Source of the DNA: an uncultured Woeseiaceae bacterium
GTDB lineage: Bacteria > Pseudomonadota > Gammaproteobacteria > Steroidobacterales > Woeseiaceae
Direction: 5' to 3'
DNA length: 64,000 nt
Assembly (NCBI GenBank): GCA_945788625.1
Contig: CALZMQ010000022.1
Span: 30,007-94,006 of the forward strand
Shown piece by piece: positions 18,831 to 29,307 of the stretch; within the stretch, counting starts at the first letter, position 1, and each line of letters begins with the position of its first letter. The notes under the pieces are model-generated. The model saw only the letters and a list, made by a program, of their open reading frames with translations. It was not told the origin of the DNA and searched no databases. The translations under genes and the position numbers were made by a program.

Positions 18831-20864
18831 ATGTCCCGACTCTTGATACTACTGGCGGCAACGCTTGCGCCACACCCCGCTGCGGCCGACGATTCCGAAA
18901 TAGAGGAAGTGCTGGTGACGGCGACGCGCCGTGCGGTCAGCAGTGAAGAGGTATCGTCCGGACTTACGCTTGTCGACCGCGAGCGCGTGCAGGCGAATGA
19001 ACTGGTCACTGATGCGCTGGCCGGCGAGGTCGGCGTTTTTCTTCAGCAAACGACCCCGGGGCAGGGGGCCGCAATCATCCGCGGCCTGAAGGGGTCGGCG
19101 ATATTGCACCTCGTCGATGGGATGCGACTGAATAACGCGATATTCCGCAGCGCGCCGACGCAGTATCTCGCTTTGGTGCCGACGTCGGCCATTGAGCGCA
19201 TCGAAGTGCTACGCGGCACGTCGGCCTCCCTGTACGGCAACGATGCCGTTGGCGGCGTCGTGCAACTGGTCACGCGCGTTCCGAAGTTCGAGTCGCTCGA
19301 GACGGAGCTGCGGGGTGAGGCGCTGCTCGCATTCGACACTGCCGAGCTTGCGAAGACGTTTCGCACCAGCGTCGATTTCGGTAACAGCGAACTGGCCTCG
19401 TCCTTCAGCGCGGAGTACGTCCGGACAGGAAATCGCCGCACGGGTGGCGGTGAGCGCACCGGGCCGGGTGCTTACGAGTCCAGGGCGGCGCGCTACGTGC
19501 TGTCGGCGAATCCGCGGGACGATCGCTCGTGGCTGTTCGACGTTCAGTATCTCACGCAGCCGGAAACGCCACGTATCGACGAACTGGTGGCCGGTTTCGG
19601 GCAGACAGAACCGTCGTCTTCCGAATTCCTGTTTGCACCCAACCGCCGAATTTTCGCCCACGGCAAATACACGGTCACCGGTGGATTTGCAGGGCTCGAC
19701 TGGAACACCGACCTCGCATGGCAACGTATCGATGACGATCGCGTGACGCGCGATACAGGCGCCCCGAATCGGCGCCGCGAAGCGAACAGCAGCGATCTCT
19801 TTGGGCTAACTTTCAGCGGCTCGAGGATCAACGACGACGGCTCGTGGATTGTCGGGGCCGAGGTCTACTACGACAAGGTCAGGAGCGCGCGTATCGACGA
19901 GGACGTCACGACCGGCCTGCAGGTGGGCGTACCGTCGAGGTTTCCCGACGGCGCTACGGTCCGCCAGGCCGCGCTGTACGCGAACGTGTTGAAAGTTGTC
20001 GGTGACCGCCACCGGTTCAGCGGCGGACTTCGCATCAGCAACGACGAGGTCACGTTGCCGACGACGACAGTTTCGGGTGCGGCGACCATCGACGGCACCG
20101 ACCTGAGCGGCGACCTGGGGTGGATATTCGATGCCGGCCGCAATCTGCAACTCGTCGCAAATGCCGGGTTCGGATTCAGGGCACCGAACGTGTTCGACGT
20201 CGGAACGCTCGGAAACCGCCCGGGCAATCGTTTCAATATTCCGAATACGGCGCTCGACGCGGAACGTGTCGTGCAGGCGGATTTCGGTATTCGCCAACAC
20301 TCGGAGCGAGCCAAACTCGAGCTGATGGCGTACGCGTTGCGCTACACGGATCGCATCACGTCGATTGACACGGGTGTCGTAACGCCCGAAGGGCGCGATA
20401 TCGTGCAAAGCGTCAACGCCGCGGAGACGTCGATCCGCGGTGTCGAAGCGGGACTCGAGTATCGCTTCAGCGACACGGTCAATGCGCGGGTGGTCCTCAA
20501 CTACACGTGGGGCGAGCAGATTGTGTCAGGTGCCGACCCCGAGGCGGCCGGGCGTATACCGCCCCTCAACGGCGTGGTCGAAATTTCCTACGATGCTGGC
20601 GAGAAATTCCACATTGAGGGCTGGGTGCGATTCGCGGACGAACAAGATCGGCTCAGCGCGCGGGACGTCAGGGACGTGCGCATCGACCCCGCAGGAACCG
20701 ACGCATGGGCGTCAGTCGGTGCGCGCTTACACTGGCAGGGCGACGGGAACTGGCGGCTTGCCGCAGGTGTCGATAATCTTCTCGACGAACGTTATCGCGT
20801 CCATGGTTCTGGACTCGATGCGCCGGGGCGAAATCTGTCGTTCAGTGTGCACCGCTCGTGGTAG
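18831..20864 (+). CDS. TonB-dependent outer-membrane receptor
   Basis: Signal peptide, TonB box EEVLVTATR, plug domain motifs (IRGLKGS, RIEVLRG) and a C-terminal beta-barrel ending in W. Confidence 0.9.
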   Translation: MSRLLILLAATLAPHPAAADDSEIEEVLVTATRRAVSSEEVSSGLTLVDRERVQANELVTDALAGEVGVFLQQTTPGQGAAIIRGLKGSAILHLVDGMRLNNAIFRSAPTQYLALVPTSAIERIEVLRGTSASLYGNDAVGGVVQLVTRVPKFESLETELRGEALLAFDTAELAKTFRTSVDFGNSELASSFSAEYVRTGNRRTGGGERTGPGAYESRAARYVLSANPRDDRSWLFDVQYLTQPETPRIDELVAGFGQTEPSSSEFLFAPNRRIFAHGKYTVTGGFAGLDWNTDLAWQRIDDDRVTRDTGAPNRRREANSSDLFGLTFSGSRINDDGSWIVGAEVYYDKVRSARIDEDVTTGLQVGVPSRFPDGATVRQAALYANVLKVVGDRHRFSGGLRISNDEVTLPTTTVSGAATIDGTDLSGDLGWIFDAGRNLQLVANAGFGFRAPNVFDVGTLGNRPGNRFNIPNTALDAERVVQADFGIRQHSERAKLELMAYALRYTDRITSIDTGVVTPEGRDIVQSVNAAETSIRGVEAGLEYRFSDTVNARVVLNYTWGEQIVSGADPEAAGRIPPLNGVVEISYDAGEKFHIEGWVRFADEQDRLSARDVRDVRIDPAGTDAWASVGARLHWQGDGNWRLAAGVDNLLDERYRVHGSGLDAPGRNLSFSVHRSW

Positions 20865-20923: not shown

Positions 20924-23071
20924 GTGCTGAAAAAGTTCGTCAGGGAGTTGCGGCGCCGCGAAGTTTTTCGCGCTACCGGACTGTACGTTGGAATTTGCTG
21001 GCTGCTGATCGAGGTCAGTAGCACCGTACTGCCTACCTTCGATGCGCCGGAGTGGATCGTGCGGGCGATAATCATCGTCAGCATCATCGGGTTTCCGGTC
21101 GCTGTCGTGCTGGCCTGGATATACGATTTCACCGATCACGGTATTGTCGTGCAGGCCGACCCTACGGATACCGTCGTGCCGCCGGTCGGCAGCCGCAAGA
21201 TGGACTTCGTCGTCATCGGCATACTGTCGGTGGCCTTAATGGTTTCGGTGTACCTGAACGTCACGGGTCGCCCCGGCGACGTTGCCGAGCCGCAGCAGCC
21301 GGTCTCGGTGCTGATTGCGGATTTCGACAATGCCACCGGTGATCCCGTCTTTGATGGTTCCATCGAACAGGCGCTGCAGATCGGCCTCGAGGGCGCCTCG
21401 TTTATTACGACGTTTCCGCGTGCGTCCGCAGAACGTGCAGCAAGGACTTTGCAGCCGGGGTCGATGGGATTATCTGCGGAACTCGCGAGGCTGGTTTCGG
21501 TGCGCGAAGGCATCAACGTAATGCTGGACGGCGAAATCAGTACCAAAGGCGATGGATACGTACTGGTGATCAGGGCCAGTGACGGCGCCGCGGGTGAAGA
21601 GCTTGTCAACGCAAGCGCCGATGTCGACAGCAAACTGGATGTGCTGTCTGCCGTTAACAGGTTGACCGGCGAAATCCGTGAAGCCCTGGGTGACGAGAGC
21701 GTCGATGGTCGTGTCATGGAGACGTTCACCGCGCACTCGATCGAGGCTATGCAGGACTACACGACCGCACAACAGCTGGTGTTGGCGGGCAAGCGCGATG
21801 AAGCCGTGGCCTACTATGCGAGCGCCGTCGAGCAAGACCCGGATTTCGGCCGCGCGCTGTCGGGTTGGGCGTTGACGCTCTTCAACCTGGGGCGCACGGA
21901 AGAGGCGAACGCCTTGTGGGAGCGGGCGCTGTCGAAGATGGACACGATGACGGCGCGCGAACGCTACCGGACGCTTGGCTTGTACTACATGAGGGTAACC
22001 GGCAACTACGAGAAAGCCATCGAGAATTACCAGGCGCTGGTCGACGCATATCCCGCCGATAATTCAGCACACAACAACCTGGCGGTCGCGTATTTTGCGA
22101 CGCTAAATTTTGACAAAGCGCGCGATCACGGCCGCCAGGCGCTGGAGGTATATCCGAATAACGTAATCATGCGGTCGAACTACGCGTTGTTCGCCATGTA
22201 CGCCGGAGATTTCGCGACCGCTACGGCCGAAGCAGAACAAACCCTGGCCCTCGAAGAAAACCGCCATGTCGCGTGGTTGCCGATCGCTATGGCGAACGCC
22301 GCTGAAGGGGACCTCGGGGGCGCCCAGGCCGCTTTCGACAGCATGATGACGCTCGGTGACGGAGGTCGTTCGCTGGCCAACCTGGGAAGCGCGGATCTGC
22401 AGATAGTGCGCGGTGACTACGTGGCTGCAATCGAGACGCTGCGGGCCGGCATTGCGCATGACGAAGAAACCGGCAATGCACGAACACGCGCTACCAAGGA
22501 GGTCATGCTCGCGGACGCTCTTGCAGCAGGCGGCGCGTCAAAAAGCGCGACGGAAGCGCTGGCGCCCGCGATCGAAGCGGGCGGGCTCGGCCGGCTGGTG
22601 CCGGCCGCACTGATCAGTATTCAGATCGGCGACACGGAAACGGCCTCCGCCATTGCCGAGTCGCTTGGCCAGAAGCTGCAATCCCAGAGTCGGGCATACA
22701 GTCTCATGATCGCAGGTATCCTGGAACTCGAGGCCGGCAAGCAGGTTCCCGCTATCGACAAGCTCCGGGCTGCCATAGAGATGTCGGACCTGTGGCTGAT
22801 CCGCTTCCATCTCGGCAGGGCCTACCTGGAAGCTGGCTTTGCGGCCGAGGCGGTGGGGGAGTTCCAGATCTGTCAGGACCGCATCGGAGAGGCCACGGCG
22901 ATGTTTCTCGATGACCGCCCGACCTGGCGTTACACCGCGACCTTATCCTACTGGTCCGGGCGGGCCGAAGAAGGACTCGGCATGGCTCATTCGGCCAGGG
23001 AGAAGTACCGACTGTTCCTGCAAACGCGGCCAAACGGCCCTTTGGCAGACGATGCCAAAGGGCGCTTGTAA
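20924..23071 (+). CDS. Membrane-anchored TPR-repeat protein
   Basis: N-terminal FVRELRRREVFRATGLYVGICWLLIEV anchor and multiple TPR units in the C-terminal half. GTG start. Confidence 0.75.
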   Translation: MLKKFVRELRRREVFRATGLYVGICWLLIEVSSTVLPTFDAPEWIVRAIIIVSIIGFPVAVVLAWIYDFTDHGIVVQADPTDTVVPPVGSRKMDFVVIGILSVALMVSVYLNVTGRPGDVAEPQQPVSVLIADFDNATGDPVFDGSIEQALQIGLEGASFITTFPRASAERAARTLQPGSMGLSAELARLVSVREGINVMLDGEISTKGDGYVLVIRASDGAAGEELVNASADVDSKLDVLSAVNRLTGEIREALGDESVDGRVMETFTAHSIEAMQDYTTAQQLVLAGKRDEAVAYYASAVEQDPDFGRALSGWALTLFNLGRTEEANALWERALSKMDTMTARERYRTLGLYYMRVTGNYEKAIENYQALVDAYPADNSAHNNLAVAYFATLNFDKARDHGRQALEVYPNNVIMRSNYALFAMYAGDFATATAEAEQTLALEENRHVAWLPIAMANAAEGDLGGAQAAFDSMMTLGDGGRSLANLGSADLQIVRGDYVAAIETLRAGIAHDEETGNARTRATKEVMLADALAAGGASKSATEALAPAIEAGGLGRLVPAALISIQIGDTETASAIAESLGQKLQSQSRAYSLMIAGILELEAGKQVPAIDKLRAAIEMSDLWLIRFHLGRAYLEAGFAAEAVGEFQICQDRIGEATAMFLDDRPTWRYTATLSYWSGRAEEGLGMAHSAREKYRLFLQTRPNGPLADDAKGRL

Positions 23072-23079
23072 CGACTGCC

Positions 23080-26000
23080 TTAGCGAAGCCGGATCGGCGG
23101 CGACTCGAGGAACTGGCCGGTAATCGAACTCGTCACGCGGGCACAATACGTGCCTTTCGGCAACGGGTTACCGGCGCCATCGTCGGACTGCCAGTTGAAT
23201 TCCCAGGTATTATCGGACTTGACGCGGAAGCCGCTGCTGCCGGGGTCGCCGGCCATCGACAGCACTGTCGATCCATTGCCACAAGAGCGAATCTCCAGCA
23301 ATTGCTGGTCGTCGGAACTGTCGATGATAGCGCCGTTGGAGTCCAGCCAGCCCCAGGTCAGCGGGTTGCTGCTGCCCGCTTTGCTGTTGAGCTTCGTCGG
23401 TGTGATACCGACGCCGCCGGCGTAACCGACGCGCACTTCGAAGCTGGCGGTGCTGGCGTTGCCCGCGCTATCGGTCGCCGTGCAATCGACAGTTGTAGCG
23501 CCCGGCGGGAACAGGGTCCCGGATGCCGGCGTGCAGAGGAGATTCGGCGAAGGATCGATGTTGTCACTGACCGTGACATCGGAGCTGTAGTCGACGATCG
23601 CTCCTGACGTGTTTTGCAGGTCCGCGTCAAGGCCGCCGACCGGCACGTTGATCACCGGCGGCACAGTGTCCGTTACGGTAACCACGAAGCTCGCCGTCGC
23701 CGTGTTCCCCGAGTTGTCGGTTGCGGTGCACGTTACGCTCGTATCGCCTATCGCAAAGACCGTGCCCGAGGGTGGCAGGCAACTCACCGAAGGTGTGATA
23801 CCGCTGGTGTCCGAGGCCGCCGGCAACGCATAGCTCACAGTAGCGCCATTGATGCCCGTAGCAGGAACCGTCACGTCCGGCAGCGGCAAATCGATGAACT
23901 GTGGTGCGGTGACGTCATTGACCTGCACGACGTAACTTTGCGTCGTCATGTTGCCGGACGCGTCCGACACCGTGCAGTCGATCGTCGTTGCGCCGATTGG
24001 CAGCGGTTCACCCGAAATCTGCCCCGATTCCGCGGTGCAGCTAATCACAGGCGTCGGGTCGACATCGTCGACGTCGGCCGCCGCAAGTCCGCTCTCGAAA
24101 TCGAGACTGGCCGTACCGCTGACGGCATCCGCATCGACGTTGACCGGCTGTGACGGGAAACTCGTAAACAGCGGCGCCTGGTTGTCCCGTACGTCGACCA
24201 GTAAGTTGATCGTCGCGGTATTGCCCGCGTCATCCGTAGCGCTGCACATGATCGGGGCCGGGTTAGGGTTGGCAAGCGTAATGACGGGAATCGACTGGCC
24301 GGGTTCCATGCTCGTACAAATCGTTTCGCCGAGGCTGTCGGTACAGCTCACCGCGACAGGTTCGCCGTTGTCGCTGGCGCTCACGATACCCGCGCCGACC
24401 AGGTCCACGCAGGCGCCGCCGGGACGATTCGCCTCGATGGCCGGAACCGGAATCACGTCGCCGTCCGTCAGGCCGCCGAACTCGGGAGGCGCGGTGTCCA
24501 GCAGGATGCGCTCACGTTCATCGGCGAGATCCAGCTGGCAGAAGTAAGGATCGGTATTGCCCGGCGGCCTGTCCGTCTGGCTGCAGTTGGCGGCTTGCGA
24601 TGCCGACGTGAATCCACTGACCTGGATATTGTCGAGTTCTTCCTGCGTCCCGAACACACGACGTGTGAAGAACAGCGTCTGGCCAGGGACCGCGATCGCG
24701 CTGATTTCGCCGTCGAAAGGAGATTCGATCGTCGCAACGTCCAGCGCGTCGTCTGGATTGTCGACCATGGCAAGTACGCGCCGCTCGACCTGGGGCAGAT
24801 AATCGCAGTCGCGCGATGTCGGCGTGATGTACAGCGTCCATGCCACCAATTGCGAATCGACGTCGTCTGCTGCGGGACCGGAGAGAGCGATGTCCGCGTC
24901 GAACGACGTCGTGACATTGCCCGTGTTCCTGACGGCAAACGTGTAGTCGGTCCAGGTGACGCCTTCGCCTTCGGCAATGGTCGAGTTGATGAGTTCCGGA
25001 TTGATGAGTTCGGGGTTGATGAGTTCCGGATTGATCAACTCGGGATTGATGAGCTCGGGATTGATCAGTTCGGGGTTGATCAACTCCGGGTTGGCGAAGC
25101 CGAGATTGATGAGTTCCGGATTGATGAGTTCCGGATTGATCAGCTCGGGATTGATGAGTTCGGGGTTTATGAGCTCGGGATTGATGAGTTCGGGATTGAT
25201 CAATTCGGGGTTGATCAACTCCGGGTTGATGAGTTCGGGATTGTGCAGTTCGGCTTGCAGGACGTCATCCGTGCAGTCCGGATCGGCCGCGTCGCAGACG
25301 GGACTCTGGTAATTCGGCTGCTGCAGCACACCGGACGGACCCATGCCGCCCAGCGTGATGCTCGTCACGATGGGACAGGCGCCCAGGTAGTAATCGGCCG
25401 GGTTCGAATCGACGCAAGATTGCGTGAATACCTGCACGCCGGTCGTGGCATCGGGCAGATTGGAAACCAGGAATACCGTGCGTGCGAGCGCCGACTTCGC
25501 CGGCACGACCAGGTCTTCCGTTACGACCGGCGCGGGTATGTCGGGGCCGTCGAATGGCGGCACCGCCGGCAGCTGCCGGAACGACGCGCGGCCCAGCAAC
25601 GGGGCGTCGGCGGGCTGCCCGGTTATACGCATACGGTAGGCTTGTTCGACGTTGTTGGCGTTGCTCAGCGCGATTGGTATTGCACGTTGCAGATTCGTAA
25701 GTGGTTTGCTCGGTGTCGGTGCGGTCAGGCGCACCTGGTCCCGTATACGGGCGCCGTAGATATTCGCGTTGCGGGTGCGGTCCTGCGGGTCCAGCGGCGC
25801 ACACACGTCGGGCATGGGATCGAACGGATCTTCGATGCCTTCGGTCGTTCGAGTCGTGCCATCGAGTTCGGCGGGCGGCCCGCCGGCATCTGCCAGCATG
25901 GGTTTCTCGGGCCGTTCATGCGGTGGCAGCAATTTCGAAGGGACGGTTCTGCTTCCGGGTCCCGGCGTGTTCTCCGGAGGTGAGTAGGGGACTGTGTTTT

Positions 26001-27978: not shown

Positions 27979-29307
27979 CTATTTGAAAAACGTCTCCATC
28001 TCGTCGTTGAAGGCATCGGCGTCCGAGCTTTGCCGCTGTTCCATGTAATCGATGATCTCGATGGTGTCTTCGTCGACCTCCTCGGTTTCGGCGCTGAGTA
28101 TCGTCGGCGTGATGAGCACTACCGTTTCGGTGTTGACCTTGGTTTGCTCGCGGTTCGAAAACAGGCGCCCGAGGACGGGAATGCGGCCTATTACTGGCAC
28201 TCCGCGTTTGCTTTCCTCAATGCGATGCTTGATGAGTCCGCCGACGAATATGGTTTTGCCGTCCGGCACGATCATTCTGGTCGTTACCTCGGTCGTGGTT
28301 TGCGAGGGAATGCCGGTTATCGGATCGATAATACCGGTACTGACTTCCGGATGGATATCCATCATTACCTTACCGTTTGCATCGACCGACGGGGTTACAC
28401 GGAGAATGACACCCGACTCGAGGAACTCGATGCTCTCGGTCGTTACCTGGTTGATGGTCGTGATGACACTGTAGCCGCGGCGATCGCCGATGATCACCGA
28501 TGATTCCTGGTCTTCGACGGCCAGCAGCTTCGGTGACGACAGGGTGCGCACGCGTCCCTGCGATGTGAGCGCATCCAGTACCGCGGAGATGTCGGTGTTC
28601 GCATAGCTGAAGAACAGTCCCGGGCTACCCGCGTTGCCGAGCCCCTGGGTACCGAACGAGCCGCTGCCACCGTCACTGTCGAAGAATTTCGTCCAGTCGA
28701 GCCCGTACGAGTCCTCGTCGGTGAGCGATACTTCGAGAATCTTGGCCTCGATCAAGATCTGCGTAGGCTGCCTGTCGATTTCGAGCACGAGCGCGGCCGT
28801 CCGATGCAGGAATTCCGGGGTGTCTTCAATCAGAAGAATATTCCTGTCGTTGAAAACAGTGATCTCGCCGTATTCCGAGAGGTAGGGTTGAAGCAGCGAT
28901 TGCATTTCGTCGACAGCGACGTATTGCAGCTCGAAACTTCGGACCTTCGTCAATGTGTCCGGAGCATACTTACCTGCCTCGTCGCGGTCGACAATGAAGT
29001 AGTTACCCTCGTAGTGCTCGACCGCAAGTCCGGCCGCGTTGGCAATTGCGCGAATAGCGTCCGGCAGCGTCATGTCGTAAAGGCTGAAGGAGACTTGTTC
29101 GTTGGAGTCCGTGGAAACGAAGATGTTGACTCGTTGCTCGCGCGAAATCATGTCCATCACGTCAACGAGGTCGGCGTCTCTCATGGTCATGCTGATGCGG
29201 TGCTCGACCTCCTGCGCGCAGGCAAGCGACGAAATCAGGAGGGTTACGGCCAGGAGCCCGTGAACGAAAGTCCTTGTCAGGAAGCCTGGAATTGTATGTC
29301 TACTCAT
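27979..29307 (-). CDS. Secretin (GspD/PilQ/MshL family)
   Basis: C-terminal secretin signature GVPVIGRIPVLGRLFSNREQTKVNTETVVLITPTI, with an N-terminal signal and secretin-N-like domain. Confidence 0.9.
   Translation of the reverse strand: MSRHTIPGFLTRTFVHGLLAVTLLISSLACAQEVEHRISMTMRDADLVDVMDMISREQRVNIFVSTDSNEQVSFSLYDMTLPDAIRAIANAAGLAVEHYEGNYFIVDRDEAGKYAPDTLTKVRSFELQYVAVDEMQSLLQPYLSEYGEITVFNDRNILLIEDTPEFLHRTAALVLEIDRQPTQILIEAKILEVSLTDEDSYGLDWTKFFDSDGGSGSFGTQGLGNAGSPGLFFSYANTDISAVLDALTSQGRVRTLSSPKLLAVEDQESSVIIGDRRGYSVITTINQVTTESIEFLESGVILRVTPSVDANGKVMMDIHPEVSTGIIDPITGIPSQTTTEVTTRMIVPDGKTIFVGGLIKHRIEESKRGVPVIGRIPVLGRLFSNREQTKVNTETVVLITPTILSAETEEVDEDTIEIIDYMEQRQSSDADAFNDEMETFFK

Follow-up and report, generated by a model that had tools for sequence, protein, structure and literature searches.

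Pentapeptide-repeat proteins (PRPs) number about 39,000 sequences and are recognised by at least eight contiguous five-residue repeats (PMC8145042). Within each repeat the residues i and i-2 lie packed within the helix, and i-1, i+1 and i+2 are exposed (PMC2964730). The published set of residues at i-2 is A/C/S/T/V, to which the extended set adds L/I (PMC2964730, PMC8145042). For the other positions the extended consensus lists D/N/S/K/E and others at i-1, S/T/R/E/Q/K/V/D at i+1 and G/D/E/N/R/Q/K at i+2 (PMC8145042). A review of the family makes no mention of proline (PMC8145042). What, then, should be made of a five-residue array that carries proline in sixteen units? Such an array is encoded in a stretch of 64,000 nucleotides (here, the window) from an uncultured Woeseiaceae bacterium (assembly GCA_945788625.1, contig CALZMQ010000022.1, positions 30,007 to 94,006). 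It lies inside a secreted multidomain protein of 1562 residues and is built on the peptide NPELI. The array is under purifying selection at every residue, has a fixed unit count and belongs to a family-wide module. Judged from its sequence, this module is probably a proline-type variant of the PRP β-helix.

Residues 838-932 of the protein read QAELH, nine copies of NPELI, NLGFA, seven further copies of NPELI and NSTIA, i.e. 19 units in register of which 16 are identical (coordinates in Table 1). Translation thus confirms the 9 + 7 array with one NLGFA interruption (residues 843-927) that a first-pass annotation of the window had noticed. At the DNA level, the 16 NPELI units consist of 10 distinct 15-nt sequences around the consensus AATCCCGAACTCATC. 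They differ by 2.5 nt per 15 on average, and Tandem Repeats Finder assigns the array a period of 15 and 78% matches. Each of the 29 departures from the consensus unit is synonymous, compared with 10 of the 45 possible single changes (naive P ~1e-19). The synonymous variation reported earlier is therefore real, but the codon list that came with it needs correction. The codons used in the window are CCC/CCG for Pro, GAA/GAG for Glu, CTC/CTG/TTG for Leu, AAT/AAC for Asn and ATC/ATA for Ile. The Pro codon CCA occurs in the arrays of orthologues and not in that of the window, and the caa and cag ascribed to Glu are, on the plus strand, complements of Leu codons. A 45-nt super-period, proposed by Tandem Repeats Finder, was discarded after no consistent DNA similarity was found at lag 3, or at any other lag, in seven orthologues. 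Could the array be a product of misassembly? The longest exact DNA repeat inside it is 25 nt. Misassembly is unlikely because independent assemblies show the same 9+1+7 layout, some of them on contigs of 355 kb to 2 Mb. The gene is single-copy in the 4.67-Mb assembly, and its array is the only perfect period-5 peptide array of at least 20 residues in any frame of that assembly.

A tandem repeat that is perfect at the peptide level could also have arisen recently, by replication slippage or unequal recombination, or be an assembly artefact, and have no function under selection. To this reading we give next to no probability, and it is already refuted. The DNA of six orthologues, 65-74% identical overall, encodes the same peptide in the same 9+1+7 layout in every case. 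In the alignment of seven orthologues, residues 839-929 form 91 consecutive invariant columns, against 43% invariant columns overall and a next longest run of 11. Units with the same index in two orthologues differ by 2.76 nt per 15 and units with different indices by 2.75 (permutation p = 0.61). Same-index units are no closer than others, so the synonymous sites are saturated and the DNA has not been recently homogenised. The same peptide and the same unit count are kept in many independent assemblies and in orthologues with synonymous sites at saturation, and the differences between units are all synonymous. Concerted evolution was rejected too: units encoding an identical peptide differ in DNA at all 27 loci, by 1.5-3.7 nt per 15 except at one locus on a truncated contig (L035; 0.8 on five units), and same-index units are not closer between orthologues. 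The claim that the exact peptide is held by selection on the protein, and not by recent slippage, is therefore strongly supported, with an array that is 100% identical in seven orthologues.

The 9+1+7 count is fixed in about 30 sequences. At the strain level, two clusters at 90% identity that carry NPELI (20 sequences) have no change in count or sequence. The two outcomes that the first-pass annotation had named as contrary to its proposal are not what is found: the repeat count is not hypervariable, and virtually every orthologue has the segment. A length variant exists in one of the six clusters examined, where two members carry a 3-unit indel. In that cluster (P0026 versus P0175/P0177), two of the eight full-length members have three extra units (NPELLNPELANPELA, 15 residues) in the second block. 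At L012:4546-4605 and L021 (metagenome-assembled genome (MAG) HOU_bin.0018, contig CALODT010000005.1) the array of the orthologue is frameshifted, reading …NPELINPELINPELINPELINPDTHQPGAD and then other frames. This is either a pseudogene or the result of assembly indel errors inside the repeat.

Does anything at the DNA level add to this? Codon use for Asn, Pro and Glu looked more even in the array, which raised the idea of selection for codon 'scrambling'. This idea is unneeded, since simulation from the codon usage of each gene suffices: the longest exact DNA repeat is 20-26 nt as observed and 20-29 nt in simulated medians, and the diversity of units is reproduced as well. Plus-strand open reading frames (ORFs) run over the array (24595-25983, 462 residues; 24956-25312, 118 residues), of the antisense kind usual in a GC-rich gene. 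An overlapping plus-strand gene, or a function of the array as DNA or RNA, is unsupported. Either would limit synonymous sites, yet these are saturated, which argues against a second coding constraint from the antisense frames.

How widespread is the module? The 1562-residue protein has more than 100 full-length homologues. Around residue 800-950, a period-5 array is clear in 102 of the 120 homologues listed and imperfect in another six; the remainder match via their HYR domains only. The hosts are MAGs of Woeseiaceae, other Gammaproteobacteria and Acidobacteriota, and the family is a very large one of proteins secreted by sediment bacteria. The unit is uniform within a protein and differs by lineage. 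Some units begin with Asn-Pro (NPELI, NPELA/L, NPLLE, NPLIE, NPLIQ, NPQLI, NPALI, NP[NT]LI, NPDLL, NPDIQ, NPNLQ), and others are NLTLG, NANLL, NAGLL and ADIEN. An exhaustive search with the 111-residue segment returned 2428 representative clusters at a threshold of E<=1e-3 and 609 at the stricter E<=1e-10, with unrelated low-complexity proteins among the hits. Among the best 150 clusters, most share the propeller or the flanking domains and have NP-type units (NPDIT, NPDIS, NPDIA, NPAIL, NPALL, NPDFL). The 9+1+7 layout extends to relatives with NPLLE, NPLIE, NPQLI, NPDIT or NPDIS units, which are about 30-50% identical. Even the NPDIT and NPDIS members, at about 30% identity, have it together with a lead-in of the form 'E[LV][HY]' and a closing unit of the form 'N[STG]xx'. 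The recurrence marks the module as a domain of set length and not as a repeat that runs on freely, and the distance between the flanking domains is 83-124 residues in most homologues. A degenerate DNA pattern for four tandem NPELI units, run over the species genomes searched, hit five MAGs, all five hits being orthologues of the window gene, and found no NPELI array in any other protein context. The propeller/pentapeptide-module/HYR architecture was also seen in the Acidobacteriota MAG loci L028, L031, L032, L035 and L036, at about 26-31% identity to the window protein.

Which fold could such a module adopt? Parsed from its Asn, the unit comes in 262 distinct types across the family. Position 1 is N, position 2 is P/A/S/L/T/V and position 4 is L/I/V/F/Y in 88%, with variable and mostly polar residues at positions 3 and 5. 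This is the inward/outward pattern of PRPs, with position 2 as i-2 and position 4 as i. The same family also contains Ala-type arrays (NANLL, NASLL and NAGLL in Woeseiaceae, ADIEN in Acidobacteriota; JGI name 'YjbI with pentapeptide repeats'). These arrays are located at the same position between the same flanking domains, have the same ELH/EVH lead-in and align unit for unit with Pro-type orthologues. They differ from the NPELI module in having Ala at i-2 and in passing Pfam thresholds: the ADIEN protein P0100 scores 27.1 bits on PF00805 (cut-off 20.2), and the NANLL protein P0072 reaches exactly the cut-off of PF13599, with 38 bits. Ala-type arrays, which are genuine PRPs, match solved PRP structures, the best being 4YFO (2e-17 and 8e-18), followed by HetL, Np275/276, Rfr23, QnrB1 and MfpA. 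Three Acidobacteriota orthologues whose flanks are 62-78% identical align without gaps, unit for unit, as YPDIENPDFENPDFENPDFEN, YADIENADIENADIENADIEN and SLDIENLDYENLDYENLDFEN, which implies that Pro, Ala and Leu fill the same structural slot. The NANLL versions are set apart from the NPELI module by being three to four times longer and interrupted by Cys-containing loops. In these relatives (L025, L037, L039; P0063-P0085) the module is expanded three- to four-fold into three or four long blocks of up to about 60 units, separated by conserved inserts of 45-60 residues with paired Cys (…PTLVALA.EG..CC…).

The proline-type arrays can be linked to PRPs in their own right. A gap-free profile of 95 columns (A3), built from ten Pro-type modules only, NPELI included, was searched against the PDB. 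Almost all matches are PRPs: 4YFO (3e-12), Rfr23 (2O6W, 1e-4) and Np275/276 (2J8K, 4e-4), with weaker matches to Alr5209, 6FLS, EfsQnr, SV2A and HetL. In these alignments Pro falls on Ala(i-2), Glu on D/N(i-1) and Leu on Leu(i). A control profile (A4), in which two positions were swapped inside every unit of A3 while composition and period were kept, matched no PRP in the PDB, its sole match being fibromodulin at E = 8. The similarity to PRPs thus depends on the order of residues within the unit. The irregular units read as ordinary pentapeptides in the PRP register (AELHN, LGFAN, STIAE). The 'ELH' or 'EVH/EVY' that precedes an N is conserved across the family and aligns to 'ELTNASL' of solved PRPs.

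Compared with known PRPs (PF00805/PF13599; Rfr23 2O6W, Np275/276 2J8K, HetL 3DU1, MfpA, Qnr and the designed beta1 protein 4YFO), the module shares the period of five and the run of at least eight contiguous units. It also shares the central hydrophobic L/I/F with a small residue facing inward two positions ahead of it, an acidic or amide side chain at i-1 and Asn where the consensus has G/N (i+2). The similarity of the profile is register-specific, and the first, tenth and last units look canonical. The hydrophobic centre i is Leu in all 16 NPELI units, Phe in the interrupter and Ile in the closing unit; Glu(i-1) and Asn(i+2) fit the extended consensus of 2019, Ile(i+1) does not. Unlike known PRPs, the module has Pro at i-2 and Ile at i+1 in every NPELI unit, and 16 identical units instead of the usual degenerate repeats. 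It also differs in being invisible to Pfam, in not being folded by AlphaFold2 (AF2) and in having a fixed 19 units inside an extracellular protein of 1500-2500 residues. The secreted YjbI-type PRPs of the Caulobacter cell envelope likewise are PRP helices working outside the cytoplasm; they are described as dedicated PRPs, not modules in giant propeller/HYR proteins (PMC12864828). The first-pass annotation was literally right that the unit does not fit the classical A(D/N)LXX consensus: the published sets include neither Pro at i-2 nor Ile at i+1, and there is no Pfam match. The identity outside the PRPs that this implied is unsupported, given that position and register are homologous to those of Pfam-positive Ala-type arrays and that the Pro-type profile matches PRPs.

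We infer the following fold, dimensions and role for a module that would be a proline-type PRP helix. Pro would occupy i-2 (inward), Glu i-1 (outward), Leu i (inward, in the core), Ile i+1 (outward) and Asn i+2 (the turn). The 19 units would fold as a right-handed, four-sided β-helix with four units per coil and about 4.75 coils. At the roughly 4.8 Å per coil of known PRP geometry, its height would be around 2.3 nm. It may serve this secreted or surface protein as a stiff joint, constant in length and rotation, that links the propeller half at the N-terminus to the Ig-like/HYR stalk at the C-terminus. The outer faces would display stacked ladders of Glu and Ile. Since these putatively outward residues are also invariant, the faces could provide a surface for binding or self-association. 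The fold by itself would account neither for this invariance nor for the 16 identical rungs. An earlier suggestion had been a rigid spacer or a novel solenoid. A solenoid remains the best reading of the two, but it is probably the known four-sided PRP helix and not a novel one.

A number of observations weigh against a PRP helix. Pro is at i-2 in 16 of 16 NPELI units, outside both consensus sets, and Ile at i+1 does not fit the extended consensus and would put 16 hydrophobic side chains on the surface. No Pfam Pentapeptide model matches the NPELI array even at E<=10, other Pro-type relatives are negative as well, and a single-sequence search of the PDB with the NPELI array gave no match. Proline also removes one backbone NH per unit. 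In Qnr proteins, Pro at i, i-1 or i+2 caused inactivation, i-2 being untested in that study (PMC2964730). AF2, given the segment of the window protein with a family alignment of 59 sequences, modelled the flanking β-sandwich domains with a predicted local distance difference test (pLDDT) score above 90 and the NPELI array with one of 31-45. For a relative whose NP[TN]LI array is heterogeneous, a second run gave 29-46. In the low-confidence model of the array many units have one helical turn at P-E-L, not strands. A fold search of the PDB with the AF2 model found weak β-sandwich matches only, and none for the array. With perfect repeats AF2 is known to predict β-solenoids too readily (PMC11795689), so its failure to fold this one counts against a solenoid; proline-bearing units may lie outside what AF2 has learnt. 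Unit-variant patterns have no consistent 4-unit period: the spacings of irregular units peak at 4 and 8, in counts that are not phylogenetically independent, and two-state mixtures of units have lags of 2, 3 and 4 in different lineages. In a four-sided helix, the 3-unit indel of one strain cluster would mean a rotation by three quarters of a turn.

Is the array, then, an extended semi-rigid stalk? Each NPELI could form an Asx-Pro turn and a one-turn helix, the units together making a spiral of turns like the NANP repeats of the Plasmodium circumsporozoite protein and spacing the halves of the protein many nanometres apart. The low AF2 confidence is typical of non-globular segments, and the 3-residue helical turns of the model fall exactly at P-E-L with a period of 5. 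Asn-Pro starts every unit, Pfam does not match the array, and a constant unit number would also be in keeping with a spacer of set length. The circumsporozoite repeats resemble the present family in having Asn-Pro in each short unit, in their predicted non-globular nature and in a unit that is uniform within the protein and lineage-specific. They have, however, a period of 4 and no hydrophobic core residues, and it is in the present family that Pro can be swapped for Ala or Leu. An Asx-Pro-turn stalk needs Pro in every unit; in close orthologues Ala or Leu replaces it unit for unit throughout the array with nothing else altered, so a turn-forming Pro is not essential. Linkers normally evolve fast, whereas the array is the most conserved stretch of the protein. 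A stalk would also leave sixteen Leu-Ile pairs exposed to solvent, and, being featureless, it hardly accounts for irregular units that are conserved at set positions (unit 10; unit 6 in the NPLIE group). Together with the register-specific match of the Pro-type profile to solved PRP helices, this makes the stalk unlikely.

Another alternative is a different, undescribed solenoid or an intermolecular assembly, for instance a three-sided coil of 15 residues or strands contributed by several chains. It would agree with the failure of AF2 runs on monomers, with three-unit patterns in heterogeneous arrays (.o..o..o. in P0009; the order APVLQ-APSLQ-APGFQ in P0097) and with the 3-unit indel of the one strain cluster. 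Invariant residues at predicted outward positions likewise suggest contacts beyond the core of a monomer. Against it, irregular units are found 4 apart (NLGFE-NSGYA-NTAYA in P0041; N[MV]ELE-NYGFE in the NPLIE group; NYYLT-NYALA in P0056), the DNA has no 3-unit periodicity, and the profile similarity is specifically to four-sided PRPs. We consider such a structure quite improbable. A bolder version holds that the Pro-type module (N-P-x-hydrophobic-x) takes a non-PRP fold or assembly that is absent from the PDB and cannot be modelled by AF2, and that every residue, the outward ones of a PRP helix included, is fixed by a specific contact of the whole surface, e.g. through self-association or by docking to the neighbouring type IV filament machinery; this too seems rather doubtful. 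A proline-type PRP helix is the reading we favour.

The protein that carries the module begins with a signal peptide and a BNR/Asp-box propeller half, with Asp-box motifs at residues 101 (SCDAGTTW) and 257 (SDDWGQTW). β-Sandwich domains, the pentapeptide module and HYR/Ig-like domains follow, and the C-terminus has a weak PxKF-type match (NCBIfam, weak PxKF/OmpL47-type). The module had been placed between the propeller and the HYR domains. Its direct flanks are two β-sandwich domains and not the propeller and HYR domains themselves (Table 1). The C-terminal one gave no informative fold match in the PDB. The short helix ahead of the module (residues 131-137 of the modelled segment) is predicted by AF2 with low to moderate confidence, and the Cys-X6-Cys/helix element to which it belongs is possibly an N-terminal cap or a disulfide bracket of the module.

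Table 1. Features of the array-bearing gene and its neighbours, in window coordinates.
Feature	Position	Strand	Basis or remark
Gene for secreted multidomain protein, 1562 aa	23080..27768	-	ORF and translation; Pfam HYR 4.8e-23
β-Sandwich domain directly N-terminal of the module, aa 700-824	25297..25671	-	AF2 all-β, pLDDT mostly 87-98; conserved in homologues
Cys-X6-Cys element and short helix before the module, CDAADPDCTDDVL, aa 825-837	25258..25296	-	Cys pair conserved in family alignment
Lead-in unit QAELH, degenerate	25243..25257	-	A(i-2) E(i-1) L(i) H(i+1), then N(i+2): canonical-looking pentapeptide
Block 1, nine identical NPELI, aa 843-887	25108..25242	-	Translation
Interrupter NLGFA, aa 888-892, always the tenth unit	25093..25107	-	In relatives, N[LYFV]G[FY]x or a hydrophobic unit, e.g. 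NTVLL
Block 2, seven identical NPELI, aa 893-927	24988..25092	-	Translation
Closing unit NSTIA, aa 928-932	24973..24987	-	S(i-2) T(i-1) I(i) A(i+1), canonical type; family pattern N[ST][AST][LIF]x
β-Sandwich domain directly C-terminal of the module, aa 933-1090	24499..24972	-	AF2 all-β, pLDDT 88-96; conserved in homologues
Best-scoring HYR domain of the C-terminal Ig-like/HYR region, aa 1303-1365	23674..23862	-	Pfam PF02494
Secretin gene of type IV filament operon, directly upstream, same strand	27979..29307	-	Pfam Secretin 1.3e-36
Convergent gene for 715-aa TPR protein	20924..23071	+	Pfam TPR families

What surrounds the gene? The secretin gene is the direct upstream neighbour in several orthologous loci as well, and the TPR gene adjoins in most of them (L001, L002, L004, L005, L006, L008). 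The TPR neighbour is kept although the upstream side varies among loci, where a secretin, a PDZ protein or a TonB-dependent receptor is encoded. It is conceivable that the TPR protein is a partner for the repeat peptide surface. A gene for a TonB-dependent receptor is located beside the TPR gene in the window (18831-20864, plus strand) and in L001. In one orthologous locus (L007:5313-6311, MAG MFD03551.bin.1.75) the orthologue ends early, at 1436 residues, and a separate HYR-domain ORF starts 1 nt later, a hint that the gene is split or has a frameshift within the C-terminal stalk.

What does the module mean for the PRP family? The string NPELI gave chance matches only in the full-text literature, and no description of a Pro-type PRP module was found in the literature searched. 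If the favoured reading is right, there would be a large set of proteins with Pro at the inward i-2 position of every unit, whose arrays Pfam does not see and AF2 cannot fold. Both miss the Pro-type arrays, and current PRP censuses and structure databases therefore miss them as well. The NPELI clade is an unusually clean natural case, in which 16 tandem units stay identical to the letter under selection while their DNA drifts to saturation. It offers a test case for why some solenoids need identical rungs and for whether Pro is compatible with the Rfr fold, and residues 825-945 make a short, clearly bounded target for structure determination. For the secreted propeller/HYR proteins, an unstudied family, the constant 19-unit module also serves as a handy marker.

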